This document shows, piece by piece, positions 10,046 to 63,258 of a stretch of DNA of 64,000 nt (position 1 is the stretch's first letter; every line of letters starts with the position of its first letter). The DNA lies in assembly GCA_001189155.1 (NCBI GenBank), contig LFCP01000004.1:1998-65997 (forward strand). The letters run 5' to 3'. Under the pieces are notes generated by a model. That model searched no databases. It worked only from the letters and a program-made list of their open reading frames with translations, and was not told the origin of the DNA. This stretch comes from Parcubacteria bacterium C7867-006. GTDB lineage: Bacteria > Patescibacteriota > Minisyncoccia > Phycocordibacterales > DATDWN01. The position numbers and the translations under genes were made by a program.

Positions 10046-11881
10046 ATGTGTGGAATAGCTGGCGTAATAGAGCCATCAATTAAGAATAAAGAGAAGGTTA
10101 TAGAGGCTATGGTCTCAAGAATCATCCATCGTGGACCAGACGAGGATGGTTTTTATGTAGATAAAAATGTCGGTCTTGGAATGCGCAGACTCTCTATAAT
10201 TGACCTATCTACTGGCCATCAACCTATAACATCCGAAGATGAGAAACTTTTGATATTTTTCAATGGTGAGATTTACAACTATCTAGAACTTAAAAAAGAT
10301 CTTTTAAATAAAAAATATAATTTCAAAACTGATTCTGATACAGAAGTTATTCTCCACATGTATGAGGAGTATGGAGAGAATATGCTCCAGATGTTGCGAG
10401 GGATGTTTACTTTTTGTATTTACAATACAGAAACAAAAGAAGTTTTTGTTGCACGAGATTTTTTTGGAATCAAACCTCTTTACTATCTAGTTCAAAATGA
10501 AAAAATTGTGGCTTTTTCTTCGGAGGCAAAAAGTTTTCTGTCTTTTCCAAAGTTCAAACCAGAGGTTAATGACTCTGCTGTAATGAACTACCTTTCTTTC
10601 CAGTACAATCCTTTAGTTGAAAGTTTTTTCAAGGATGTTTATAAACTTCCACCAGCTCATTTTATGAGAATTAATCTGGAATCTGGTCAGACAGAAATTA
10701 AAAAATACTGGTCATTTGACTTCAAACAAAACAGGGAACTTGATGAAAAGAAAACTAAAATCGATTTACTGTATACAATAAAAGATTCAGTCAGACATCA
10801 TATGATAGCGGATGTTCCTGTTGGAGCTTTTCTGTCTGGAGGAATAGACAGTAGCATCATAACTACTCTGATGCAGGAGATAAGAGGTGATAAGAAAATC
10901 AAAACATTTACTGTTGGATTTAACACTCTAACAGAAGCAACAGAAGCAAAAGAAACATCAGATGTTTTGGGGACTGATCACAACGAAATAACAGTTGGAC
11001 CAGAAGAATATTTTTCTGTTTTAGGAAAGGCTGTTTATCACTTTGATGAGCCTGTCGCTGATCCGAGTGCAATCGGAATATATTTTCTAGCTCGTGAGGC
11101 GGCAAAAAGTGTGAAAGTTGTTCTCTCTGGAGAGGGTTCAGATGAGTTATTTGGTGGATACAATATTTATACAACTCCTTTTGCTTCAAATAAAATGTTG
11201 TGGCTTCCAAAACCTATTATAGATTTTGCTATTAAACTTCCTTTTAATTTTTTTGGTAAAAATTATTTAAAACGAGTAAGTCAGAAAATTGAGGATTGGT
11301 ATTTCGGTCAAAAATATTTTAGCGATTCTATTTTCGATAGGTCAGAAATAAAGAAAATTTGGAAGGGTGGGGAAGGAGAGTTTTTGTCTATGAGTCCTTT
11401 GTATAAAAAGGCGGGCAGACTTTCAGACTCCACAAAAATGCAGTATATAGACATAAACACCTGGCTAGTTGGTGATATATTGGCCAAGGCAGATAAAATG
11501 ACTATGGCTCATAGTTTGGAGCTCCGAGTACCGTTCCTAGACATAAAGGTAGCAGAGCTTGCTAGAACCCTCCCAGACCGCTTTAAATGGCATAATGGAG
11601 CCACAAAGTACCTACTTAGAGAGGCATTTAGTAGGGTAATACCGGAGTCCACTAGAAACAGACGAAAGCTAGGTTTTCCTACTCCTATTCGTGACTGGAT
11701 GACTGGAGAAAGTATTGGTATTTATAACTCAATTTTGAACAACGATTACATCAAAAAAAATCTAGATATTGAGTATATAAAAAAACTTATCGAAGACCAT
11801 AATGATGGCAAAAAAGATAACTCTAGAAAGATTTACACATTGTTAATGTTGGCTCTGTGGTATGATACATTTATCAAGTAG
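10046..11881 (+). CDS. asnB: asparagine synthetase (glutamine-hydrolysing)
   Basis: Begins MCGIAG (N-terminal nucleophile Cys), followed by the SGGIDSS PP-loop of the synthetase domain. The ORF-track start at 10010 is an upstream extension. Confidence 0.85.
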   Translation: MCGIAGVIEPSIKNKEKVIEAMVSRIIHRGPDEDGFYVDKNVGLGMRRLSIIDLSTGHQPITSEDEKLLIFFNGEIYNYLELKKDLLNKKYNFKTDSDTEVILHMYEEYGENMLQMLRGMFTFCIYNTETKEVFVARDFFGIKPLYYLVQNEKIVAFSSEAKSFLSFPKFKPEVNDSAVMNYLSFQYNPLVESFFKDVYKLPPAHFMRINLESGQTEIKKYWSFDFKQNRELDEKKTKIDLLYTIKDSVRHHMIADVPVGAFLSGGIDSSIITTLMQEIRGDKKIKTFTVGFNTLTEATEAKETSDVLGTDHNEITVGPEEYFSVLGKAVYHFDEPVADPSAIGIYFLAREAAKSVKVVLSGEGSDELFGGYNIYTTPFASNKMLWLPKPIIDFAIKLPFNFFGKNYLKRVSQKIEDWYFGQKYFSDSIFDRSEIKKIWKGGEGEFLSMSPLYKKAGRLSDSTKMQYIDINTWLVGDILAKADKMTMAHSLELRVPFLDIKVAELARTLPDRFKWHNGATKYLLREAFSRVIPESTRNRRKLGFPTPIRDWMTGESIGIYNSILNNDYIKKNLDIEYIKKLIEDHNDGKKDNSRKIYTLLMLALWYDTFIK

Positions 11882-19570: not shown

Positions 19571-20767
19571 ATGATAACTGAAAATAATAAAGCTTTCAAA
19601 GATATACCCTTAAAGATATATGAGCCCGAGTTTGGTTCTGAACTGACTAACATTATTATTGAACTAGAGAAGCTTCGTGTTAAAAAATTAGGTGGGCCCG
19701 TTCCACCTCATATATTTTTCCAATTAAAAGAAATTTTTCAAATGTTTGAGAGTCTTGGTTCTGCCAGAATAGAAGGAAATCGAACTACCTTGTCTGAATT
19801 TGTTGAAAAAATCATTGAGAATCCAACTAAAAAAACAAAAGACGACGGTCTTAAAGAAATTTATAATATTGATAATGCAATTCAATTTATAGAAAAGAAT
19901 GTTGATAGTAAAACAAATTTTAGCCGCTATTTTATTTCTGAAATTCATAAAATTTTGGTTGATGGGCTTACACCACCTCCAACGGGGGAGGGATCTAGGT
20001 ATCCTGGTCAATTTAGACCAGTAAACGTTACCATTAACAAGTCCTCCCTTATTTCACCCGAACATGTTCAGGTGCCAGAATATATGGAAGAGTTATTAGG
20101 GTTTGTGAATCAACCAAGAACATCTCAGTACCATCTTCTTGTAATGGCTTTAGCACATCATAGAATGGCATGGATTCATCCGTTTGATAATGGAAATGGA
20201 AGAATGGTTCGTATGTTTACCTATGCTCTTTTGATCAAACAAGGTTTTAAGGTTAAGAGTGGAAGAATTATTAATCCTACAGCAATTTTCTGTATGGATC
20301 GTAATAAGTACTATGAAAAATTAGCTCATGCAGATTCTGGAACGAGAGAAGGTGTTTTGGAATGGTGCACTTATGTATTAGAGGGGTTACGTTCAGAAAT
20401 AGAAAAAATAGATAATCTCTTAGATTTAAAATATATGACCAATACAATTCTTATACCTGCATTAGATTTTGCTTTAGAGAGAGAAAACATCACAAGACGG
20501 GAGTATGAAATACTGGTTTTTATTGTAAAAAATAAAGGTATGGAGATTCGCCCTATTGATCTAAAAAAAGCAATTGGAAAAGATAGTGTTGTTGAAAGAT
20601 CAAGAATATTAAAAAAGTTAAGAGATAAAAAAATGGTTGAGCCTATTGGTAAACAGAATGGGAGGATATACACTATAAGTTTTGCTAATAATTATCTATT
20701 AAGAGGTATTGCCCATGTGCTGGAGAAAAATGGCTTTGTCCCAGAATCTTTGAATAAGAAAGATTAA
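19571..20767 (+). CDS. Fic family protein (putative AMPylase) with N-terminal inhibitory motif and C-terminal winged HTH
   Basis: Fic core HPFDNGNGRMVRMFTYALL (HxFx(D/E)GNGR). Upstream SARIEGN fits the (S/T)xxxE(G/N) auto-inhibition helix. Confidence 0.8.
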   Translation: MITENNKAFKDIPLKIYEPEFGSELTNIIIELEKLRVKKLGGPVPPHIFFQLKEIFQMFESLGSARIEGNRTTLSEFVEKIIENPTKKTKDDGLKEIYNIDNAIQFIEKNVDSKTNFSRYFISEIHKILVDGLTPPPTGEGSRYPGQFRPVNVTINKSSLISPEHVQVPEYMEELLGFVNQPRTSQYHLLVMALAHHRMAWIHPFDNGNGRMVRMFTYALLIKQGFKVKSGRIINPTAIFCMDRNKYYEKLAHADSGTREGVLEWCTYVLEGLRSEIEKIDNLLDLKYMTNTILIPALDFALERENITRREYEILVFIVKNKGMEIRPIDLKKAIGKDSVVERSRILKKLRDKKMVEPIGKQNGRIYTISFANNYLLRGIAHVLEKNGFVPESLNKKD

Positions 20768-32845: not shown

Positions 32846-34051
32846 TTATTTTGTGTTTATTAGTTTTTTATAAAAAAGAGCTACAAAAGTAATGAACTCG
32901 TCTATCTTTCCTACAGCTTGGTTTTTGATAAATTTAGAAACAACAATTTCATCTATTATATTTATGTTTAACATTTTTCTAAAAATAGAAGTTGTATCAG
33001 TTTTTGGCATTTTCAAAAATTCTGTATATATGTGTACAACATCACTATCTGACATTAAGTATATATTTGAAGGTAAATTAATAGTTGGAGATAGTTCCAC
33101 TAAAGCATTTTCTAGATATATAGCCCATTCTTTTTCAATTTCAGCTATAACCTCGTGCATTTTTTGATTTACAGAATCATCAGACTTGTCGGAGCTAAAC
33201 ATGTGGAGCATAGACTCCGCTATCTCAGGAGTAACGTCAAAATTTTTACTTATTTGTCTTAATATGAAATTTCTACCAGAAGGTATAGATACATTTTGTT
33301 TAATAACAAAATCCTGTACAAGTGTTAGATCGGTTACATCTCCGGAGACATCACATATCAAGAAATCCCCACCTGCGCTGAAAAAATCTCTAACAACCGC
33401 AAAAGAGACTACTGGGAATGTATGAAACTTGAAATCATCTTTGTGTATGTGCGCATATCTTAGGACAATATCTTGTATTTTATATACAAGGCCCACATCC
33501 ATAGCCGACATACAAAGAAAAGCCTCTAAGCTTTTTGTTTTTTTATCTAATATATTTTGAAGTTCATAGCCATTAATTTTTGTATGTAAAACATTTTTCT
33601 CTATAACCTCAAAAGCATCAGGTCTTTCAGGATAAAGTTCTGATTTAAATATGTTTTCTTCCTGTGAAATTACATCATTTAAAAATGATTCCGTAACAAT
33701 AAAATCCTTCTCGTGAGAAAGTGAAAGATGTTTAGTTTTTATCGCAAACCATGGAGATGAGAAAGATATAATTCCACCAGAAAGCTTTTTTGATTTATTA
33801 TTCCAGTATTTATGATTAAAACCTTCTTTTACGAGTTCTTTTAGTTGTAAATCTAATATGGATAGTAGAGATTCTATTAGCCGATTAGCATCTGCTTTGT
33901 CCCCGACAGGATGTGTTGCTGTTTTAGAGTACAAAAAAGTAGGTAATTCTTCAGCATTAAAAACTACCATTGCTGATGTAACTGTACTGCTACCAACATC
34001 AATAACGAGAGAAACTTTTTCTTTTTCATTCCCAAATGAGAATATAGACAT
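32846..34051 (-). CDS. actin-fold ATPase of the FtsA/PilM family
   Basis: N-terminal LVIDVGSSTVTSAM phosphate-1 motif, DVSGDVTDLTLV phosphate-2-like motif, and SIPSGRNFI resembling FtsA GG-motif. Confidence 0.55.
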   Translation of the reverse strand: MSIFSFGNEKEKVSLVIDVGSSTVTSAMVVFNAEELPTFLYSKTATHPVGDKADANRLIESLLSILDLQLKELVKEGFNHKYWNNKSKKLSGGIISFSSPWFAIKTKHLSLSHEKDFIVTESFLNDVISQEENIFKSELYPERPDAFEVIEKNVLHTKINGYELQNILDKKTKSLEAFLCMSAMDVGLVYKIQDIVLRYAHIHKDDFKFHTFPVVSFAVVRDFFSAGGDFLICDVSGDVTDLTLVQDFVIKQNVSIPSGRNFILRQISKNFDVTPEIAESMLHMFSSDKSDDSVNQKMHEVIAEIEKEWAIYLENALVELSPTINLPSNIYLMSDSDVVHIYTEFLKMPKTDTTSIFRKMLNINIIDEIVVSKFIKNQAVGKIDEFITFVALFYKKLINTK

Positions 34052-36478: not shown

Positions 36479-37111
36479 TTATTTTTTATTCTTCTCTTTG
36501 CTCTTATAAGAAACCGCTACCTTTTTGTTATCAAACCACCAAGCATTTGAGTCTGTCTTCATTATTTCGTTTACAATTTTTTTAGCATTTTCTGTTTTTA
36601 TTCTTTTTACCGCATGCTCGGCCCACTTTAATGCTCTGGTATTACCTTGATCAACTTGTTCTTTTAAAGCCATTATCCATTCAATATTATCTGCATCTTT
36701 AACCAAAATAGACTCTTTACTTTGCCTATCTTCATATTCCTCAATGATTCCAAAAATTTCTTCACCAAAAGATATTGAGTCTGCTATGTCACGATGTGCA
36801 GCTTCTTCTTTTCTTTCAACATATTTTTGATGAACATAGTTCAAATCAGATATTCTGGTTTCTGATATATCATGAAATAAACACATTTCTAAAACTTTTG
36901 AAATGTTGACTGTACCGTCCATCATGGCTAAGGCATATCCTATATAACAAACGCGGTTTATGTGTTCAGCCACAGATTGATCACCGGTTCCTAAAAAGTG
37001 AAAACCACTTCTTGGAGTTTTTGATAAAATTCCAACCTCAAAAAGGAAATTTGCTGTATTTTTATAATCACTTTTTGATTTTTTATTACTTTTTTTCATT
37101 TTATAACGCAT
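36479..37111 (-). CDS. HD-domain phosphohydrolase, YfbR-like 5'-deoxynucleotidase family
   Basis: FLFEVGILSKTPRSGFHFLG ... ESVAEH-like (QSVAEH) ... LFHDISE. HD motif present. Confidence 0.6.
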   Translation of the reverse strand: MRYKMKKSNKKSKSDYKNTANFLFEVGILSKTPRSGFHFLGTGDQSVAEHINRVCYIGYALAMMDGTVNISKVLEMCLFHDISETRISDLNYVHQKYVERKEEAAHRDIADSISFGEEIFGIIEEYEDRQSKESILVKDADNIEWIMALKEQVDQGNTRALKWAEHAVKRIKTENAKKIVNEIMKTDSNAWWFDNKKVAVSYKSKEKNKK

Positions 37112-37934
37112 CTATCTCATCTATCACTTTTTTTATTTCAGTATCCTTAATCCCAATATCAGAAAGTAATTCTGGCTTTTCTATAATAGATTTACACAAA
37201 ACAATACCTTGATCCAAAAGAGCTTTTTTCTCATGAGTATTTAGGCTAACCAAACAAGTAAGTGGATGAAGTTTTGATTCTATTATTAGATCATGAAGAT
37301 TACCTATTGGAGGATAGTTCCAACCAATCATTCTAATGCCTCCCTGACAGCTACCGTATTCTATGGCTGTAGAAGTGAATTTTGTATTTGTAACAAGCCA
37401 CGCCTCATCCAACTCTCTTTCCTTTCCATAATTAAATTTCATTTTTCGTAAATCATCAAAACGAGCCTTAACATACAAAATAACTTTCAAATCAGATTTT
37501 GTCCCACCTTCATTGTGGAATTTAGCCTCAACCATAATAAGCTCCTTATCATTCCAAGCAACTACATCTATTTCGTGAGCAACACAAGAGCCTTTTACTA
37601 TTTGTCCTGTTTTTGCTTCAAAACCTTTATTTCTAAATATCTCTGCTACAAAATCCTCAAAAGGAAAACCTGAGGGTCCCAATTCTGAGATAGCTTTTTT
37701 TAGAGAATATTTTATTGCGATTGGTTTTTCTTCTTTATGAAGAAGCTCAAAAGCATGTTTATAAATATTATGAGTTGTAATATCTTGTTTAAGATGACCA
37801 TAAACATGGTTTATGATATCTCGAGTAGCTTTAGTAGAAGCGCCAGCACGTTTTAGAGAAAATTCTAATTTTTTTTCATCAAATGGTTCTTTTGTTCCGT
37901 CTGCTTTAATGACATAAATTGGTTCTGTATGCAT
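37101..37934 (-). CDS. ATP-cone domain fused to an Mrr-like PD-(D/E)xK restriction-endonuclease-fold domain
   Basis: N-terminal ATP-cone pattern (VIKADGTKEPFDEKKLEFSLKRAG). C-terminal FEDFVAEIFRNKGFEA ... HEIDVVAW ... IMVEAKF matches the Mrr_cat motifs (D ... E-x-K). Confidence 0.55.
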   Translation of the reverse strand: MHTEPIYVIKADGTKEPFDEKKLEFSLKRAGASTKATRDIINHVYGHLKQDITTHNIYKHAFELLHKEEKPIAIKYSLKKAISELGPSGFPFEDFVAEIFRNKGFEAKTGQIVKGSCVAHEIDVVAWNDKELIMVEAKFHNEGGTKSDLKVILYVKARFDDLRKMKFNYGKERELDEAWLVTNTKFTSTAIEYGSCQGGIRMIGWNYPPIGNLHDLIIESKLHPLTCLVSLNTHEKKALLDQGIVLCKSIIEKPELLSDIGIKDTEIKKVIDEIDAL

Positions 37935-39072: not shown

Positions 39073-40071
39073 TTACTGGTTTAGATAGAGTTCCTTATTT
39101 CTTTTATGTTGCTCAAACGTAGTCGCATAGTACATTTTTCCACTTTTACTTGATAAGAAATAAAGATACTTTGAATTTGTTGGATTAACAGCAGCAAATA
39201 TTGCATCTAAACCAGGATTACTTATTGGACCAGGAGGAAGACCTCTATATTTATAAGTGTTATATGGCGAGTCTATTTTTAAATCATCAGCTGTTAGTTC
39301 ATAAGTATTTTTACCATTTATATAAAGAAAAGTAGAATCCACTTGAAGAGGCATACCGATGGACAATCTTTTCCAAAGTATACCTGCAACCATTCTACGA
39401 CTTTCTGTGGTTCTGGCTTCTTCCTCTAAAATAGAAGCCATTATAATTATTTCTTTCAAACTATGGGTTGACGTCGCTATTCCACCAACAGTTTTTATTT
39501 TTTGATCAAAATTATTTTTCATCAACTCAACAACAGCTTCTGGTTTTATGGTTGGAGAAATAAAATAAGTATCAGGAAAAAGATACCCTTCATTACTTTT
39601 TGCTAACTTTAAAAATTTAGTTTTATCAAAACCAATCAAGTTGGCTTTTAAATAATCAGCTATTTGAAAGATACTCCATCCTTCAGGAATAGTGGCTTTA
39701 AATGTAACTAAATGAAACTGCCCTTCGGTTATACGATAGGCCAGCTCAAAAGAACTCTCTTTTGCATCTAATAGGTAGTCTCCTGCTATCATTTTTTTCT
39801 CCCCACCAAGCATTCTCACCGCCAACCTGAAAAAGAACGGTGATCTAATAACTTTTGAGTCATAAAGACTATTCGCTATCCCTTGAAGAGATGCTCCTTG
39901 TTGAACTACCACAACCTGACCAAGAGGAAATTCTCTTGGTTGTGTATTCATATACAAATAAAAAGAAAAAAATATAACAAAAATTAAAGAAAAGTAGAGA
40001 GAATACTTCTGTCTTTTTGGTAAAGACCTTATATTTTTAATTAATTCAGATAATATTACGGAATATTTCAT
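39073..40071 (-). CDS. mltG: endolytic murein transglycosylase (YceG/MltG family)
   Basis: N-terminal TM and the C-terminal YceG signature YNTYKYRGLPPGPISNPGLDAIFAAVNP. Confidence 0.8.
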   Translation of the reverse strand: MKYSVILSELIKNIRSLPKRQKYSLYFSLIFVIFFSFYLYMNTQPREFPLGQVVVVQQGASLQGIANSLYDSKVIRSPFFFRLAVRMLGGEKKMIAGDYLLDAKESSFELAYRITEGQFHLVTFKATIPEGWSIFQIADYLKANLIGFDKTKFLKLAKSNEGYLFPDTYFISPTIKPEAVVELMKNNFDQKIKTVGGIATSTHSLKEIIIMASILEEEARTTESRRMVAGILWKRLSIGMPLQVDSTFLYINGKNTYELTADDLKIDSPYNTYKYRGLPPGPISNPGLDAIFAAVNPTNSKYLYFLSSKSGKMYYATTFEQHKRNKELYLNQ

Positions 40072-47877: not shown

Positions 47878-48492
47878 ATGCGAGATTTCTTGTTTTTCCT
47901 GCTCGCTACTTTCCTCCTGTTACCAAATGTAGCAGAAGGAAAAAGCAGCCTAGTTGGAAGCACTGTCTCTCAACACAAACAAAACGACCACGCCGAAGAA
48001 GAAGGTCTTCCTCAAATCAGAAATGATGAGGAACTAAACACTCTAAAAGAATCCGGAGCGCTCGTCCCAATTCCGGGAACCGTAAGAGTGGACTACCGAC
48101 TAGAAGACAAATGGCGTTGGTGTCTTCCCCAGACATCGTTCTTTCTTGGAGATATTGGACTCGAGTTCCAAGAAGTTTTTGGAAAACGACTCCAAATCAA
48201 CTCGGCAGTCAGGACAACACTGAGACAAATTGAGCTCCAAAAAACGAACAACAACGCTGTACCTGTCACTGGTCGTCGTCGGTCTTCCCACCTCACTGGG
48301 GCAACAGTGGACATTGCCAAAATCGGTCTCACAAAAGATGAACTTGAGTGGGTTCGATTAAAACTCCTCTCTCTAGAAGACGAGGAAAAACTGGAGGCAA
48401 CAGAAGAACACGATCAACTCGTTTTCCATGTAATGATTTTCCAGAGCTACACAAACGAAGCCAAGGCTTCGGAACTGCGAGCGCAGCAATAG
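47878..48492 (+). CDS. secreted LAS-superfamily zinc peptidase (peptidase M15 / DUF882-like) on a GC-rich islet
   Basis: Signal peptide MRDFLFFLLATFLLLPNVAEG. SAVRT ... RSSHLTGATVDI matches the SxHxxGxAxDI metal-binding motif of M15/VanY-like peptidases, with a second His later (FHVM). Confidence 0.5.
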   Translation: MRDFLFFLLATFLLLPNVAEGKSSLVGSTVSQHKQNDHAEEEGLPQIRNDEELNTLKESGALVPIPGTVRVDYRLEDKWRWCLPQTSFFLGDIGLEFQEVFGKRLQINSAVRTTLRQIELQKTNNNAVPVTGRRRSSHLTGATVDIAKIGLTKDELEWVRLKLLSLEDEEKLEATEEHDQLVFHVMIFQSYTNEAKASELRAQQ

Positions 48493-48508
48493 GCGCTCGC
48501 AGTTTTTC
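48476..48508 (+). terminator. intrinsic terminator, perfect 10-bp GC stem + T-run
   Basis: ctgcgagcgc agcaatag gcgctcgcag ttttt. Confidence 0.6.
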
Positions 48509-48516
48509 TTTAATAA

Positions 48517-48552
48517 GAAAACTCCCGAAACCTTGCTAGGGTCTCGGGAGTG
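48517..48552 (-). terminator. intrinsic terminator for the convergent minus-strand gene
   Basis: actcccgaaacc ... ggtctcgggagt stem. The minus-strand reading is followed by a U-rich run. Confidence 0.5.
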
Positions 48553-48570
48553 ACTGAGAATACTGGAGAA

Positions 48571-49410
48571 CTAGGTCTTCAGCACGCCGAAGAACTGACG
48601 TGCAGCAGCCTGAACCGCAGTGAGCTCAGCTTCAGCCTTATCAGCCCGACTCTTCTCTTGAGCCAAGGCTTCGTTCGCCAACTTCAGATCAGCGGTGACT
48701 TTCGCAACCTCCTCGCGGTAAAGCTCAAGCTCCGCGAGCTGATCCTGGGTAGAAGCAATCTGCCCCTCGAGTTCAGAGACTCTCATGGACAGATCGGTGC
48801 TCTGTTTCTGCAGTGGAGCGATCGAGCGACGGAGTTCGTCACACTCCTGCTCCTTCCTGATAAACAGTTGATACTGTTTGAGAACATTGTCGATGACCTC
48901 ACCCAGGTTGGGAATCCCACTTCGGAACTTCTCCAACTGACGGGCAGAATCGCTCCAGCCCTTATAGGGAGAAGACGAGCCGTTCCCGTCAGCCTTGTTC
49001 AGATCCTGAACAAGAACCGACGGAACAGGACCCTGATCCTCCACCGATGGATGTTCCTTCGGCTTCTCCTTTTCATTCGGGTAAGCCGAACTAAGAAGAT
49101 CCCGAATCTCAGCGGGGGTCAGAGTCTTGGGATGAAGAATCGCTCCATCGGGCCGGTCGTTCTTGATCTTCATCGTCAGCTCGTGATCGACGAAGCGGGT
49201 CTGAAGAATGAGTCCCGTGTTGCTCGGAACTGTGCACTTCTTACTGTCATCAGTGAACCAGAACAGCAAACGTCGGTCGCCCTTGTTGTACCAACCACCC
49301 ATGTTGCTCGGCCTGACGCCAGCAACAAGAATGGTGCCGTTGTTGGCGAGAACTGTCTTGGCCTGTTCGATGAGAGTGCTGGTGATCATGATCCGCTCCT
49401 TTTCCGACAC
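48571..49410 (-). CDS. hypothetical protein: N-terminal globular domain + C-terminal coiled-coil (GC-rich islet)
   Basis: RBS aaaggag 7 nt before the ATG on the minus strand. The C-terminal 110 aa is heptad-rich (LQKQSTDLSMRVSELEGQIASTQDQLAELE...). The antisense 297-aa plus-strand ORF is rejected. Confidence 0.5.
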   Translation of the reverse strand: MSEKERIMITSTLIEQAKTVLANNGTILVAGVRPSNMGGWYNKGDRRLLFWFTDDSKKCTVPSNTGLILQTRFVDHELTMKIKNDRPDGAILHPKTLTPAEIRDLLSSAYPNEKEKPKEHPSVEDQGPVPSVLVQDLNKADGNGSSSPYKGWSDSARQLEKFRSGIPNLGEVIDNVLKQYQLFIRKEQECDELRRSIAPLQKQSTDLSMRVSELEGQIASTQDQLAELELYREEVAKVTADLKLANEALAQEKSRADKAEAELTAVQAAARQFFGVLKT

Positions 49411-49509
49411 GTCCGTTTACCACGGACTGGGTTGAGGATTTAAAAAGAACACCTCGAAGGAGGATTATGACATGATTGTTATAATTTGTAAATATAACTA
49501 CTATTTTGT

Positions 49510-50085
49510 TTAATAAACTCTTTTACCGTATTTAACAAATTTAGAAACCCACTTTGCACGTCGTTCTGGAGATATTTTTTTCATTGGTCCACATTTTTTC
49601 ATTTGGGTATGAATACCAGCAAACCAAAGTATTCCATCCTGAATCTCATTTGTATTATCACCAAAAAGAAATCTAGCCAGTATAGGATTAGAATCTGAAG
49701 TTACAAAAACTCTAGCTGTTTTACCCTTTAAAAGCCTCCACCAGCCCAAGCCATTTGGTTTGAACTTGTAAGCAAAACCGGGAAGCCACGATCTATCAAA
49801 CAAACCTTTGAGCAATGCCGGCATTGTAGACCACCATGATGGATAGATAATAACTAAATGGTCACACCATTTAACATCTTCTTGAAACTTCAATAAATCT
49901 GGCTCCAGTGCTTGAATAACTTTGTATCCCTTGTGAAGTATCGGATCAAACTGCATATCACCGAGATTTGTTCTCCTTACCTCGTGACCAGCTTCCTTTG
50001 CACCTTTAGCATAAGCATCCGCAAACTCGCAACACATAGACTCAGTGTCAGGATGCCCCAACAGTACAAAGATTTTTTTAGACAT
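49510..50085 (-). CDS. flavodoxin-like fold NAD(P)H dehydrogenase (quinone) family protein
   Basis: IFVLLGHPDTESMCCEFADAYAKGAKEAGHEV and HLVIIYPSWWSTMPALLKGLFDR match the Flavodoxin_2/NQO-like signature. Confidence 0.65.
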   Translation of the reverse strand: MSKKIFVLLGHPDTESMCCEFADAYAKGAKEAGHEVRRTNLGDMQFDPILHKGYKVIQALEPDLLKFQEDVKWCDHLVIIYPSWWSTMPALLKGLFDRSWLPGFAYKFKPNGLGWWRLLKGKTARVFVTSDSNPILARFLFGDNTNEIQDGILWFAGIHTQMKKCGPMKKISPERRAKWVSKFVKYGKRVY

Positions 50086-50094
50086 ATCTATATA

Positions 50095-50322
50095 TTACAT
50101 CAAACCTTTTAAATCAGCTTCATACTTTTTAACAACCTTCATTGTTGCAGTCATCTGATCACTACCGGTTCTTTTCATTTCATCTTGAACTTCCATACCT
50201 ATTTTCTGAAATAGTTCAGGATTTTTTTCTAACATTGAAAAAACTTTGTCTTGATCAGCCTGAGGAACACCCTTCATCTGACTTCCCAACATTTTTCTTA
50301 ACAGAAATGATTTTATTGACAT
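50095..50322 (-). CDS. small hypothetical protein (75 aa)
   Basis: ORF with no recognisable motif, tight spacing to upstream gene. Confidence 0.3.
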   Translation of the reverse strand: MSIKSFLLRKMLGSQMKGVPQADQDKVFSMLEKNPELFQKIGMEVQDEMKRTGSDQMTATMKVVKKYEADLKGLM

Positions 50323-50385
50323 ATTTTTTGAATTTTTAATTTACTTATCAAATATACTATATGCTACAATATATTCAAACAATCT

Positions 50386-51204
50386 ATGGCAAAGAAAAAA
50401 CAAATCGGAATGAAATGGAAATACACTCTTGGTTTGCTCGGTATATCATTCGGAAGTCTTTTGGGAATGATGTTCTACTATCATCTAGATTTATCCCTAC
50501 TCGCTTCCCTTTCGTTCTATGAAAATCTAGCAAACCCATCAATCAGAATTGTTAGAGTTCAAGAAGGACTACGTAAGGAACAAATCGCAGAGGTTTTTGG
50601 AGATAAACTTGGTTGGTCAGAGAGAGAAAAAGAAGAATTTATAAACGCCCACCTAGCTTTAAACAGTCAGAACCTAGAAGGTAGATATTTCCCAAAAACT
50701 TATATGGTTCTAAAGGACGAAGACCCTATGGGAGTAACTAGTAATATGCTCCACGAATTCATAAAAGAAACCTCTACAATTAAAAAACCGAAACCTTCAG
50801 AAATACTAAATCAAGATACAGTAATAAAAATTGCTTCCATAATCCAAAGAGAAGCTGGTGGAAAAAGTGATATGAAATTAATCTCTGGAATTATCTGGAA
50901 CAGACTTTTCAAAGGAATGAAACTTCAGATTGATGCGACTCTACAGTATGCAAAAGGTTCAGAGGAAGATGGATGGTGGACAAAAGTAGATCCCGAAGAT
51001 AAATCAATCGACTCTTACTACAATACTTATAAATACAACGGCCTTCCACCTAGTGCTATATCAAACCCAGGTTTAGCTGCATTAGATGCTGCATACAATC
51101 CGCAAAAAACAAATTGTCTTTACTATCTGCATGATAAAAAAGGACGGATACATTGTTCTACAACATACGAAGGACATAAAGCTAATATAAAAAAGTACCT
51201 ATAA
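50386..51204 (+). CDS. YceG/MltG-family endolytic transglycosylase, second paralog
   Basis: N-terminal TM and YNTYKYNGLPPSAISNPGLAALDAAYNP. The same signature occurs in 39073..40071. Confidence 0.7.
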   Translation: MAKKKQIGMKWKYTLGLLGISFGSLLGMMFYYHLDLSLLASLSFYENLANPSIRIVRVQEGLRKEQIAEVFGDKLGWSEREKEEFINAHLALNSQNLEGRYFPKTYMVLKDEDPMGVTSNMLHEFIKETSTIKKPKPSEILNQDTVIKIASIIQREAGGKSDMKLISGIIWNRLFKGMKLQIDATLQYAKGSEEDGWWTKVDPEDKSIDSYYNTYKYNGLPPSAISNPGLAALDAAYNPQKTNCLYYLHDKKGRIHCSTTYEGHKANIKKYL

Positions 51205-60572: not shown

Positions 60573-61925
60573 CTAGTCCTTACTCCTGACCGTGGTCCTC
60601 AAGTCAACCTGATCGCGGAGCATGGTCAATTTTTCAGCGAGATCATCGATCTCCTTGAGAACGTTCTGTCTGTCCTCAAGTGGACGATTTTGAAAGAGCT
60701 CATCGATTGCACGATGGGGCATGTCAACGAGATGCTCCAAGTTCTCGTTCGCCTTCCGCAGATAGTTGCGCAGGATTACGTAATCCTCTCTTGGACTACG
60801 TCCGGGTGACCCAACCCTGATGCCGGCGGCCGAAGCCAACTGGCGAGCCAGATGTTTGGCCTTCGCAACACTAAGACCCTTCTCGACAGCCTCCTTGCAG
60901 ACTTTGAGTTGAATCTCCCGGCTCTCGATTGACGCCAGGAAAACACCCATGGACTGTGGAAGTGCCGAACGCTCATTGTCGTCCGGCTCCAACATATCCT
61001 GAACTTCCTTTGGCAGGTTGAGAAGCTTCAGGTAGTTGAATGCCCAGACGTCGGTCTTGCCGGTCAACGAGGCGATGATCCTGAGAGCAGCCATCTTGCT
61101 GAGGTCTGCATATTCAGGAAAATCCATCATGCGCCGAATTGAGCGAGCGGTCTCGAGAGGAGTGTGTCCTTCGCGAGCAAAGTTCGCCACGAAAGACTTC
61201 TTGAACTGGTCTTCGGAGTCTTTGACCTCCCTGACCGTAGCGAGCATCTCCTCGACACCGAGCTTGGTGCAAGCACGAAGCCGTCGCTCACCCTCAATCA
61301 GCTCATAGTCAAAGTTGGGGTCATCATCGATCGGACGAACGATGATCGCCGTAACCTGACCAATGGCCTTGATGCTGGTCATGAGTTCCTGCATCTTCTT
61401 GGGACTGAAGTACGTGCGAGGTTGACCCTTGAGGGGTCTCACCCGTTTCGTCTTCACCAGGAACTCACCCTCCCACTTTCTTGGTGCTGGAGGTACAGTC
61501 ACAGGACCGGGGCTGCGCATGAGGTGAGCCGGAATCTGCCGTCTGGTGGTAACACCAGGCACAGCGTAATCAGCTCCGTTACCATTGCCGTTCCCGTTTC
61601 CACCAACTTCATCGCTGAAATAGGTGTTGAGGTTCTTTTCCAGATGGTTCGAGGAGTACTCGGTGTGAATCTGGTCGTCCTTGATGCCGTTCTTTCTTGC
61701 CCACGTTTTGATGATGTTCTCGGCATCTTTCTTCATTGCGTATGGAAGAACGATTCCAACCACACCGTCAGGCACAGTACCGGCGCCAAGGAACTCCCAT
61801 GAGTTCATCCAGTGGACACGTGCTCCAAACCGGAGTTGTGCCTTTCTGGGTAGGCTCATGTTGACGACAATGATCTTTCCACCGGAAGGAAAGGGCAGAC
61901 CACTAGTTGTGTTGCTCAAACTCAA
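60573..61925 (-). CDS. ParB/Srx-fold (ParB N-terminal domain) protein with N-terminal extension and GNGNGNGNG linker. Orphan (no parA)
   Basis: IKAIGQVTAIIVRPID ... YELIEGERRLRACTKLG and NFAREGHTPLETARS match ParB boxes. TTG start with RBS ggagg. GC-rich islet. Confidence 0.6.
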   Translation of the reverse strand: MSLSNTTSGLPFPSGGKIIVVNMSLPRKAQLRFGARVHWMNSWEFLGAGTVPDGVVGIVLPYAMKKDAENIIKTWARKNGIKDDQIHTEYSSNHLEKNLNTYFSDEVGGNGNGNGNGADYAVPGVTTRRQIPAHLMRSPGPVTVPPAPRKWEGEFLVKTKRVRPLKGQPRTYFSPKKMQELMTSIKAIGQVTAIIVRPIDDDPNFDYELIEGERRLRACTKLGVEEMLATVREVKDSEDQFKKSFVANFAREGHTPLETARSIRRMMDFPEYADLSKMAALRIIASLTGKTDVWAFNYLKLLNLPKEVQDMLEPDDNERSALPQSMGVFLASIESREIQLKVCKEAVEKGLSVAKAKHLARQLASAAGIRVGSPGRSPREDYVILRNYLRKANENLEHLVDMPHRAIDELFQNRPLEDRQNVLKEIDDLAEKLTMLRDQVDLRTTVRSKD

Positions 61926-62061
61926 CCTCCGAGGAAATAGTTACGAATTTGTTGGTGCTATTCCGTTTTTCAGTCTAGTAAATATATAAATTATTGTCTA
62001 TGATTCCAAACTATTAGATTTGTTGTGTATTTTTATTTTTTTTGGTAATCTAATTGTTACT

Positions 62062-62150
62062 GGGCCCGTAGCTCATCTGGCAGTTGCGTAGCAACAAGTC
62101 AAATAGCCACATCATTTGAGCAAATGATTAAACGGGTCTAAAACAAGTTT
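62062..62150 (+). pseudogene. degenerate tRNA-Ala copy (5' acceptor + D-arm intact, T-arm deleted, internal insertion)
   Basis: The first 19 nt gggcccgtagctcatctgg are identical to the downstream tRNA-Ala. It also shares cacatcatttg and cgggtc, but cannot form a cloverleaf. Confidence 0.4.
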
Positions 62151-62164
62151 GAAATTTAATATTT

Positions 62165-62237
62165 GGGCCCGTAGCTCATCTGGTAGAGCACATCATTTGC
62201 AATGATGGGGTGGCAGGTTCGAGTCCTGTCGGGTCCA
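62165..62237 (+). tRNA. tRNA-Ala (anticodon UGC)
   Basis: Manual cloverleaf: acceptor GGGCCCG/CGGGTCC with G3:U70, D-arm GCTC-ATCTGGTA-GAGC, anticodon arm CATCA-TTTGCAA-TGATG, T-arm GCAGG-TTCGAGT-CCTGT, discriminator A. CCA is not encoded. Confidence 0.9.
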
Positions 62238-62239
62238 CA

Positions 62240-62270
62240 GAAAAAAGTCCGCTGTAAGGCGGATTTTTTC
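62240..62270. terminator. short hairpin flanked by A6/T6 runs after the tRNA
   Basis: aaaaaag tccgc tgtaag gcgga ttttttc. Confidence 0.4.
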
Positions 62271-62271
62271 G

Positions 62272-62360
62272 TGACCCGAAGTAAAGCGAAGCTTTACTTC
62301 AGGACTCGAACGGAAACCTGGTTACGCGGCGAGTGCGCCGTGTCAGGTTTCCGCGTCCTA
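62272..62360. repeat. structured non-coding segment carrying an inverted 12-nt copy of the tRNA-Ala T-arm plus nested long stem-loops
   Basis: caggactcgaac (62296-62307) is the reverse complement of gttcgagtcctg in the tRNA. Stems cgaagtaaagc/gctttacttcg and cggaaacctg/caggtttccg. Confidence 0.35.
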
Positions 62361-62513
62361 ACTTTTATTGAGTGGCGATGAATTAAAAGTTAGGAAGAGT
62401 CCTGTGTTTCAGAACAAGTGTACTAACCCTATAAGGGTCAAATCCGATATTTAACATTTGACAATCCTCCCAAAATACCGCAATCTTTTGCTCAGAGCGA
62501 GGGAGGCTCTTTA

Positions 62514-62873
62514 ATGCAAAACACTGTCGCAAAAGAAGCGACATTGCAGACTAAAGCCGTAAAATCGTGGCTGAAATCTGCAGGTTACAGAGAAGTAACC
62601 AGGATGGACCTCAAAGCTAATGGGGTTCTCATCATGGTAGACACGACAAGAATCAAACCGGTTGAAGATGGTGAGATCAAAGCAGGTTACACTGCGGGCA
62701 CCACACTAGTTCAACTCGGCAACCCACCGATAACCGAAAGCGAAATGTTCGGCGGGCTTGAAGTTCTACACTTCCAGATGACCTACCCTGCAATGGGCAG
62801 ACATTCGTTTGTGCCGGTAGACGATGTGCTTACCGGCAAAGAGTCAACGCTCTGGTTTGTTGAAAAGGAGTAG
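62514..62873 (+). CDS. hypothetical protein (119 aa), paralog A of a tandem pair on a GC-rich islet
   Basis: RBS gagggagg precedes the ATG. Shares blocks with the next ORF: GVLIMVDTTRI~CIVMVDVQRL, EVLHFQMTYPAMGRHSFVPVDDVL~KVVHFRHIERASHRPDFVPLEEIL, LWFVEK~RYFVRR. Confidence 0.45.
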   Translation: MQNTVAKEATLQTKAVKSWLKSAGYREVTRMDLKANGVLIMVDTTRIKPVEDGEIKAGYTAGTTLVQLGNPPITESEMFGGLEVLHFQMTYPAMGRHSFVPVDDVLTGKESTLWFVEKE

Positions 62874-62877
62874 ATAG

Positions 62878-63258
62878 GTGGACAATCCACGTTACTTTGA
62901 AGAGGAGATCTTCAAAGCCAAAGCTGTCATGGCGCAACTCGGCTTCGATCCAGTCAAACTGGAGGACATCGTCGCGGACAACTGTATCGTGATGGTGGAT
63001 GTCCAGCGACTCTGCGCCCACAACGCACCTCCAAGCAAACTCGGTGAGGCAGGAACGTCGGTCATCTGCATCGACAACGAGCCAATCCGTGAGCACGAAA
63101 GGATTGCTGGACGAAAGGTGGTCCACTTCCGCCACATCGAGAGAGCTTCCCACAGACCAGACTTTGTCCCTTTGGAGGAAATACTCCGAGACGAGTACGA
63201 CCCGCGAGTCGCCAACTCGTCCGACACGCGCTACTTCGTGAGGCGCAAACGCGATTAG
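62878..63258 (+). CDS. hypothetical protein (126 aa), paralog B of tandem pair
   Basis: GTG start with RBS aaaggag, 4 nt after paralog A's stop. Homology blocks as above. Confidence 0.45.
   Translation: MDNPRYFEEEIFKAKAVMAQLGFDPVKLEDIVADNCIVMVDVQRLCAHNAPPSKLGEAGTSVICIDNEPIREHERIAGRKVVHFRHIERASHRPDFVPLEEILRDEYDPRVANSSDTRYFVRRKRD

Follow-up and report, generated by a model that had tools for sequence, protein, structure and literature searches.

Partial copies of a transfer RNA (tRNA) gene lying next to the intact gene are usually read as integration scars, and the tRNA-Ala(UGC) locus of Parcubacteria bacterium C7867-006 raises the question of whether this reading holds for the two fragments flanking it. 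The window analysed here is a stretch of 64,000 nucleotides (nt) of contig LFCP01000004.1 with a single tRNA gene on the plus strand (62165-62237), which was called by ARAGORN (anticodon tgc) and concordantly by Rfam/Infernal (RF00005, 63.9 bits against a gathering threshold of 29). As read directly from the sequence, it has a G3:U70 pair and no encoded CCA. The Ddl protein encoded nearby shows 100% identity to Ddl of strain C7867-006, and a neighbouring protein of 98 amino acids is also encoded on JGI contig 3300001199|J055_10000484. A first-pass annotation had described this intact gene, a degenerate tRNA copy upstream of it and an inverted T-arm fragment embedded in long nested stem-loops downstream, and had interpreted the fragments as footprints of integration and excision. 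All of these features are indeed present, the stem-loops being confirmed by repeat and fold analysis, but a different origin has to be considered for both fragments. Part of the presumed scar, the inverted fragment, belongs, as judged from its recurrence in relatives, as 5' arm to a conserved structured unit linked to the tRNA and is not an isolated scar. Related loci or contigs compared with the window are given L numbers; they were gathered in three ways, as Ddl relatives in GTDB genomes, by one metagenome scan with the 3' motif of the unit, and by contig look-ups for homologues of Ddl and of a neighbouring ParB-like protein. The tRNA-Ala sequence is identical in eight of them (L003, L004, L006, L007, L024, L236, L246, and L248).

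In the window, the inverted fragment turned out to be longer than had been stated. The tRNA segment GTTCGAGTCCTG recurs as an exact reverse complement at 62300-62311 (two matches of this 12-mer in the window against 0.00 expected), and the minus strand of 62264-62311 reads GTTCGAGTCCTG, a 20-nt hairpin and then TCGGGTCACGAAAAAA, the counterpart in the tRNA being GTTCGAGTCCTG TCGGGTCCACAGAAAAAA. The inverted copy spans the T loop, the T stem, the acceptor 3' strand, and the trailer of the tRNA, and includes acceptor and trailer in addition to the T arm. Directly behind the tRNA lies a bidirectional hairpin resembling an intrinsic terminator (62241-62269, A6/TCCGC-tgtaag-GCGGA/T6), which consists of a hairpin rich in guanine and cytosine (GC) at 62248-62263 with flanking A6 and T6 runs; it was called on the minus strand, while the T run of the plus strand was read directly, and is kept in L004, L006, L009, L024, and L237. 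It is followed on the plus strand by an inverted copy of the acceptor 3' strand (GTGACCCGA, 62271-62279), an element of all unit-bearing relatives, by hairpin hp1 (62280-62299), which splits the inverted copy and is represented in the relatives by hairpins of unrelated sequences, and by the inverted copy of the T loop and the T-stem 3' strand (CAGGACTCGAAC, 62300-62311). Within the latter, CAGGACTC (62300-62307) pairs with GAGTCCTG (62397-62404), enclosing hairpins A (62311-62353) and B (62356-62395), both recognized by inverted repeats and folding.

The unit of the window is closed by a direct copy of the T-stem 3' strand (GAGTCCTGT, 62397-62405), whose acceptor part has been lost. These 9 nt alone could be due to chance; the relatives keep the full GAGAYTCCTGTCGGGTCCA at this place, and their direct copies of the tRNA 3' end extend over 14-19 nt and bound units or islands. 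Further downstream, the sequence AGAACAAGTGTAC and a hairpin with a UAUAA loop (62411-62440) form a motif common to L003, L004, L007, and L240 and represented by the variant GGAACAAGTGTAC in L237; it lies within a unit in L240 and in the second unit of L007, only the L007 unit being complete. The window is therefore best described as carrying one unit without acceptor copy but with the CAGGACTC/GAGTCCTG helix and the inner hairpins, to which what is left of a second unit has been fused; intermediate stages of the decay of the window unit are seen in L237. A further match to the tRNA 3' end with two mismatches (TCCTGTCGGGGACA) was noted on the minus strand at 33898-33911, within an open reading frame of 401 amino acids without Pfam match, and probably reflects chance.

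Structured units follow the tRNA-Ala gene in at least 15 independent contigs, always in the orientation of the tRNA and as one unit or two in tandem behind it (L003, L004, L006, L007 with two, L009, L012 with two, L013, L015, L017, L018, L023, L024, L026, L027, L237/L238, and L240-L245). A complete unit starts with a terminator-like hairpin with A and T runs, followed by GTG(G)ACC(C/T)CGA as reverse complement of the acceptor 3' strand, a hairpin whose sequence is arbitrary and which splits the inverted last ~20 nt of the tRNA, and C(A/T)AGGACT(C/T)GAA as reverse complement of the T loop and the T-stem 3' strand. The interior, composed of 2-3 covarying hairpins, leads to GAGA(C/T)TCCTGTCGGGTCCAC, a direct copy of the tRNA 3' end (GAGAYTCCTGTCGGGTCCAC) with a 2-nt insertion. 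The ends of the unit pair to form a helix like the acceptor/T-stem duplex of the tRNA, in which A3-U70 replaces G3:U70. At least three types of interior are found, among which the 5' modules are shuffled: type 1 combines a long hairpin with GUAC and a small UGUAA-loop hairpin (L003, L007 unit 2, L012, L017, L018, and L240), type 2 two junction hairpins and a UGACGA loop (L006, L007 unit 1, L009, L024, and L026), and type 3 the hairpins A and B (window, L004, and L237).

The pairing of these interiors is retained where the sequence changes. In the six sequences of type 1, standard pairs occupy 88% of the cells and 14 pairs have changed on both sides; none of 500 shuffles was as good, and controls with slid alignments reached 37-51%. 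For the window type, 62 pairs are kept over three genomes with one compensatory change from G-C to A-U and several G-U/A-U and C-G/U-G changes, as seen for hairpin A in comparison to L004 and L237. The genomes whose unit helices show compensatory changes share only 50-80% identity in Ddl. In 12 of 13 units, moreover, the fold of the plus strand is more stable than that of the minus strand, and the stems contain 23 G-U versus one A-C apposition if read on the plus strand, compared to 13 versus six on the minus strand. The inverted arm also follows the T loop of the adjacent tRNA, with TTCGAG being accompanied by CTCGAA and TTCAAG by CTTGAA. With its membership in such a conserved unit exhibiting compensatory base changes, the inverted fragment is not well explained as a simple attachment-site footprint.

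None of the searches assigned the units to a described family. Apart from the tRNA, no Rfam family was recorded at gathering or relaxed thresholds in the window or in L006 and L007, and ARAGORN called no transfer-messenger RNA in the window or its relatives; on inspection, the units have an A3-U70 pair and no T loop. Identity with transfer-messenger RNA or with a hammerhead ribozyme was dismissed on these grounds, inspection combined with ARAGORN and Rfam. A miniature inverted-repeat transposable element, which should occur in multiple dispersed copies with target-site duplications, is not supported either, as the unit motifs occur at only one locus of the window; across the loci compared, units were seen only behind tRNA-Ala(UGC). 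Among the matches listed in three scans of IMG/VR, no tRNA 3' end with an inverted copy was present, the 14-mer and gapped patterns representing chance matches or ordinary tRNAs and both core matches coincidences within coding sequences, and a distant blastn comparison of the locus to phage records returned tRNA genes only. The literature searched contains no description of such units in the Candidate Phyla Radiation or Patescibacteria.

The upstream fragment (62062-62139, plus strand) was delimited by repeat comparison. It starts 103 nt before the tRNA and shares nt 1-19 of the latter exactly, or 22 of 23 nt including the flanking base; two occurrences of the 19-mer in the window compare with 0.00 expected, even at three mismatches, and a third copy, as a possible sign of the distal end of an element, was not found there at the same tolerance. 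The D arm is interrupted by a 24-nt insert (62084-62107) with the perfect hairpin GTTGC-GTA-GCAAC, after which homology to the tRNA resumes at CACATCATTTG (11/11) and then stops in the anticodon loop, a classical crossover region of integrases. The anticodon arm has been rebuilt to a hairpin of seven perfect base pairs (ATCATTT-GAGC-AAATGAT, 62112-62129), no T arm is left, and an acceptor-3'-like CGGGTCT (62133-62139) ends the copy. The pseudo-tRNA recorded in the first-pass annotation, with its shared first 19 nt and parts of the anticodon stem and acceptor, is therefore real. It is neither called by ARAGORN nor matched by RF00005 even at E<=10, and with its T arm deleted and its D arm interrupted it was rejected as a functional or intron-containing tRNA.

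The position of this copy is defined by the sequences around it. The putative native promoter or leader of the tRNA (TAATCTAATTGTTACT, 62046-62061, plus strand), which was not called in a promoter scan, is homologous to the sequence directly 5' of the real tRNA in the copy-less L004, L007, and L236, and a homologue also precedes the degenerate copy in L246 and L003. From the homology to the copy-less relatives, it follows that the upstream copy sits between the putative native promoter and the gene. The spacer now leading into the real tRNA (AAAACAAGTTTGAAATTTAATATTT, 62140-62164, plus strand) is kept in L003 and partly in L006, L247, and L248; because the tRNA's own leader AATTTAATATTT, common to the copy-bearing loci, is unlike the native one, a simple tandem duplication cannot be the whole story. 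The 103-nt version of the window also occurs in L003, the sequence of L247 begins within such a copy (with GGCGGTTGCATAGCAA), a relic of 42 nt is left in L246, and a divergent 153-nt version with a different insert of 88 nt at the same D-arm position is present in L006; the copy is absent from L004, L007, L024, L236, and L248, the last of which may keep only its final part. The L006 copy (11644-11798) is not called by ARAGORN, but could fold in a tRNA-like manner, its GC-rich insert providing an acceptor-like CGGGCC of its own and a 6-bp stem with a 9-nt loop.

These states argue for an old partial duplicate in the leader that has been eroding differently in each lineage, and it is because this erosion is graded that a decaying duplicate is preferred over a functional RNA. 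Some doubt about mere decay comes from the insert hairpin, which is kept between the window and L247 although their ParB-like proteins are only 53% identical. The hairpins of the copy look like products of palindrome-perfecting mutations and not like tRNA features. An integration footprint, as proposed initially, does not fit a copy in the presumably transcribed leader with such varied erosion in relatives, and integration at the 3' end of the tRNA would not yield a 5' duplicate there.

The proposed hotspot itself found support in the relatives. In L236 (Ddl 88% identical) and L246, the tRNA 3' end is directly adjoined by large serine recombinases of 517 and 519 amino acids, respectively; these are orthologous, share 60% identity, and belong to a PHROG integrase family. 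The recombinase frames (L236, 2551-4104, minus strand; L246, 793-2352, plus strand) cross the junction between element and tRNA, their last ~20 residues (VDPTGLEPATPSLQMMCSTR) being encoded by the antisense strand of the tRNA. Three unrelated insertions (L013, L237/L238, and L240-L245) end at ...|GTCCAC within the acceptor 3' strand, followed by terminator and unit, with the tRNA itself located beyond the inserted DNA and the units on the chromosomal side of the junctions. The crossover is thereby placed at the extreme 3' end of the tRNA and falls in neither fragment of the window. The series GTCCAC, terminator, unit, and terminator is present twice in L013 (6518 bp in total) and encloses an island of 6.2 kb; this island codes for a CAP12/Pycsar-type TIR-domain protein, a 513-amino-acid protein of no assigned family and small membrane proteins, and no recombinase was found on the island. 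A GC-rich gene of L237 (9527-10330, plus strand), with matches to a phage PHROG and to Pfam Tad4 (PF25186), is located between a decayed unit array and a lone tRNA-3' copy, which precedes a TTGACA promoter-like site.

The site is occupied in L013, L017, and L027 and empty in L023, and the gene content around the tRNA varies among close relatives, with L004, the window, and L003 all differing from each other. In agreement with the first-pass annotation, no recombinase was detected in the window by tblastn with a recombinase query, Pfam analysis of 30 open reading frames and precomputed Pfam assignments for 53-64 kb, about 24 mostly large open reading frames, presumably of housekeeping genes, lying outside the domain scan. 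The data support tRNA-Ala(UGC) as a long-standing recombination target whose site appears to be unoccupied in the window. Of the initial view of a decayed hotspot without live element, the hotspot and the missing recombinase therefore stand, while the reading of the two fragments as its simple attachment-site footprints is not supported.

We would give about even chances to a composite explanation, in which the tRNA would be a recombination target with two recurrent accessory features, the structured units and the eroding upstream duplicate. The units would be read on the strand of the tRNA, probably as trailer RNA produced by read-through past the terminator-like hairpins, and would fold into an end resembling a tRNA minihelix that might be cut by enzymes of the RNase P or RNase Z type. 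A processed unit RNA would then extend from the G of GGACCCGA to ...GGGUCCA(CCA). At the DNA level, the units would multiply the core sequence used by integrating elements, as large-serine-recombinase elements apparently insert at ...GTCCAC in the relatives. The sequences are compatible with a role at either level, and a function of the plus-strand RNA is what we infer.

Several observations weigh against this explanation. A terminator-like hairpin with a T run separates the tRNA from every unit and leaves no room for a separate promoter, so transcription of the units would depend on read-through. The units are dispensable, with none in L248 and none visible in L236 or L246; their interiors are mosaics of at least three types, and the window unit cannot form the full terminal helix without its acceptor 3' copy. 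Template switching within palindromes is able to produce matched changes in the two arms of a hairpin even if no selection acts, the G-U bias of the plus strand is moderate and could be caused by strand-biased mutation, and each unit type is represented by just 3-6 distinct sequences.

An explanation of both fragments as plain leftovers of integration and excision, without structure or function of their own, draws on the same hotspot, with its recombinases at the tRNA and three insertions sharing one junction, and on the direct copies of the tRNA 3' end downstream in relatives. The arrays even resemble products of tandem accretion, since two distinct types of unit stand in tandem in L007, and in both the window and L237 the tRNA is adjoined by a window-type unit, behind which a remnant of the other type is found. 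However, scars would not be expected to keep their helices by compensatory changes over such divergent genomes, and 3'-end integration generates direct repeats rather than inverted ones and no duplicate of the 5' end upstream. Moreover, the GTCCAC crossover lies outside both fragments, and the units are on the chromosomal side where elements have inserted. We therefore regard this explanation as unlikely.

The units may also be mutational by-products, if the terminator hairpin and other quasi-palindromes grew by intrastrand template switching during replication that copied the tRNA 3' end in inverted form and matched the arms without selection. The second unit of L012, whose opening sequence is a perfect inverted copy of the 19 nt before it plus trailer, centred on the terminator, is what such a process would produce, as is the correspondence of the inverted arm to the local T-loop variant. 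Both interruptions of the large palindrome are hairpins themselves, and perfect palindromes recur in the anticodon arm and the D-arm insert of the upstream copy. Template switching leaves unexplained, however, why every unit is closed by a direct 3'-end copy with a common 2-nt insertion (GAGAYTCCTG), why the UGUAA and UGACGA loops are conserved, why G-U pairs are in excess on the plus strand, and why the 5' module is nearly identical across divergent genomes; we regard this explanation, too, as unlikely. Miniature non-autonomous mobile elements or folded single-stranded attachment sites mobilized in trans, like integron attC or CTX-phage attP, would account for the terminal inverted repeats with a direct repeat of the target, the variable copy number and mosaic interiors, the bounding of the L013 island by unit copies, and the conservation of structure over sequence, but are very unlikely, as the units were seen only behind tRNA-Ala(UGC) with none elsewhere in the window, no viral contig among the matches listed shows the arrangement, no cognate recombinase is linked, and large serine recombinases use short double-stranded sites.

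If the composite explanation with its tRNA-linked units is carried further, the units might represent undescribed RNAs of Parcubacteria that mimic the 3' end of tRNA-Ala and are excised by tRNA-processing enzymes, or folded attachment-site-like DNA, with repeated attB-like cores serving as modular landing pads for defence and anti-defence islands brought in by large serine recombinases. This extension is tentative and, in our estimate, still rather doubtful.

The genes on both sides of the locus had been regarded as foreign islets with mobile cargo. They are, as had been recognized, a gene for a ParB-like protein of 450 amino acids with ParB_N and HTH_ParB domains according to Pfam (60573-61925, minus strand, 53% GC), which is divergent from the tRNA, and two paralogous genes for small proteins of 119 and 126 amino acids (62514-63258, plus strand, 48% and 56% GC). 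In L246, L247, and L248, full-length homologues of the ParB-like gene likewise adjoin tRNA-Ala(UGC) and are divergent from it. Homologues of the small proteins adjoin the locus in L003, L236 (by reading), L240, and L246, and a similar small open reading frame was read from the sequence of L006; neither Pfam nor PHROG matches were obtained for them, and a large protein search with the 126-amino-acid protein returned the query only. A putative promoter region with TTGACA and a leader (62458-62513, plus strand) precedes the small-protein pair and is homologous to the region behind the unit in L240, with similar TTGACA sites following tRNA-3' copies in L003 and L237. The ParB-like gene and the small pair adjoin each other in L246, from which the window differs by an inversion of the tRNA-ParB block.

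The ParB-like and small-protein genes have 50-55% GC in every relative, compared to 33-38% for the genomes, recombinases, and cargo. These flanking genes are thus conserved neighbours which look compositionally foreign in all relatives; the foreign composition noted initially is correct, but recent mobile cargo is not in accord with their conservation in many relatives. They keep their place beside tRNA-Ala in the window, L246, L247, L248, L236, L240, and L237, and the serine-recombinase elements are as AT-rich as their hosts. No convincing similarity that would point to a common N-terminal domain was found between the ParB-like protein and a 340-amino-acid protein encoded upstream of the copy in L003. 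Between the ParB-like gene and the tRNA promoter, the intergenic sequence (window 61990-62045, L246 2440-2500, L247 95-130; e.g., TTTGTTGTGTATTTTT) is much better kept than the ParB-like protein (53-60% identity) and might serve in regulation or ParB binding. Further GC-rich islets (47878-51204) are present in the window and encode a DUF5715 protein, a 297-amino-acid protein without assignment, a flavodoxin-like protein, and a YceG-like paralogue in addition to the first YceG, which is encoded at 39073-40071; the neighbourhood is syntenic, since YceG, flavodoxin-like, and SurA-like genes lie near the tRNA-ParB locus in L248. A Fic/DOC-domain protein (19571-20767) and a protein with ATP-cone and Mrr-type restriction endonuclease domains (37101-37934) are encoded elsewhere in the window.

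The locus shows that part of a presumed scar can be a conserved folded module derived from the 3' end of a tRNA, which recurs across divergent genomes of the Candidate Phyla Radiation beside a serine-recombinase attachment site. Should the units be processed RNAs, they would constitute a new tRNA-linked family of non-coding RNAs in a lineage with very few described RNAs; should they be DNA sites, a minimal genome would organize a reusable insertion platform. In either case, the locus supplies defined sequences, namely the attB core GTCCAC, orthologous recombinases and a unit consensus. The unit family is not found in Rfam or in the searched literature, and combines features of two known kinds, tRNA-operon repeats and attachment-site arrays.

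Among the known systems, REP/REPIN sequences are likewise hairpin-forming intergenic repeats with matched arms located by terminators, but the units of Parcubacteria are not dispersed, are tied to a single tRNA and built from its 3' end, and no RAYT-type transposase was seen with them. Tandem accretion of tRNA-associated islands resembles the locus in its downstream repeats of the tRNA 3' end, the variable cargo, and the recombinase located at the tRNA in some relatives, and differs from it in that a large serine recombinase takes the place of a tyrosine integrase, the repeats lie inside structured units with an inverted arm and an extra 5'-end duplicate is present upstream. Another likeness is to the rtT repeats (RF00391) behind tyrT of Escherichia coli, which are 178 bp in length and each end in a 3' segment of tRNA-Tyr. 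The rttR/rtT RNA has been linked to tyrT processing (bioRxiv 10.1101/2024.07.17.603846). Both systems consist of tandem units behind a tRNA on the same strand, each ending in a copy of the tRNA 3' end, which is seen in the relatives and reduced to GAGTCCTGT in the window, and release by the processing machinery is presumed for both; there is no match in sequence, and none to the RtT model at gathering or relaxed thresholds. Unlike rtT, the units of Parcubacteria begin with an inverted tRNA 3' end, contain several types of covarying hairpins, are set apart by terminator-like separators, and are located at an integration hotspot.

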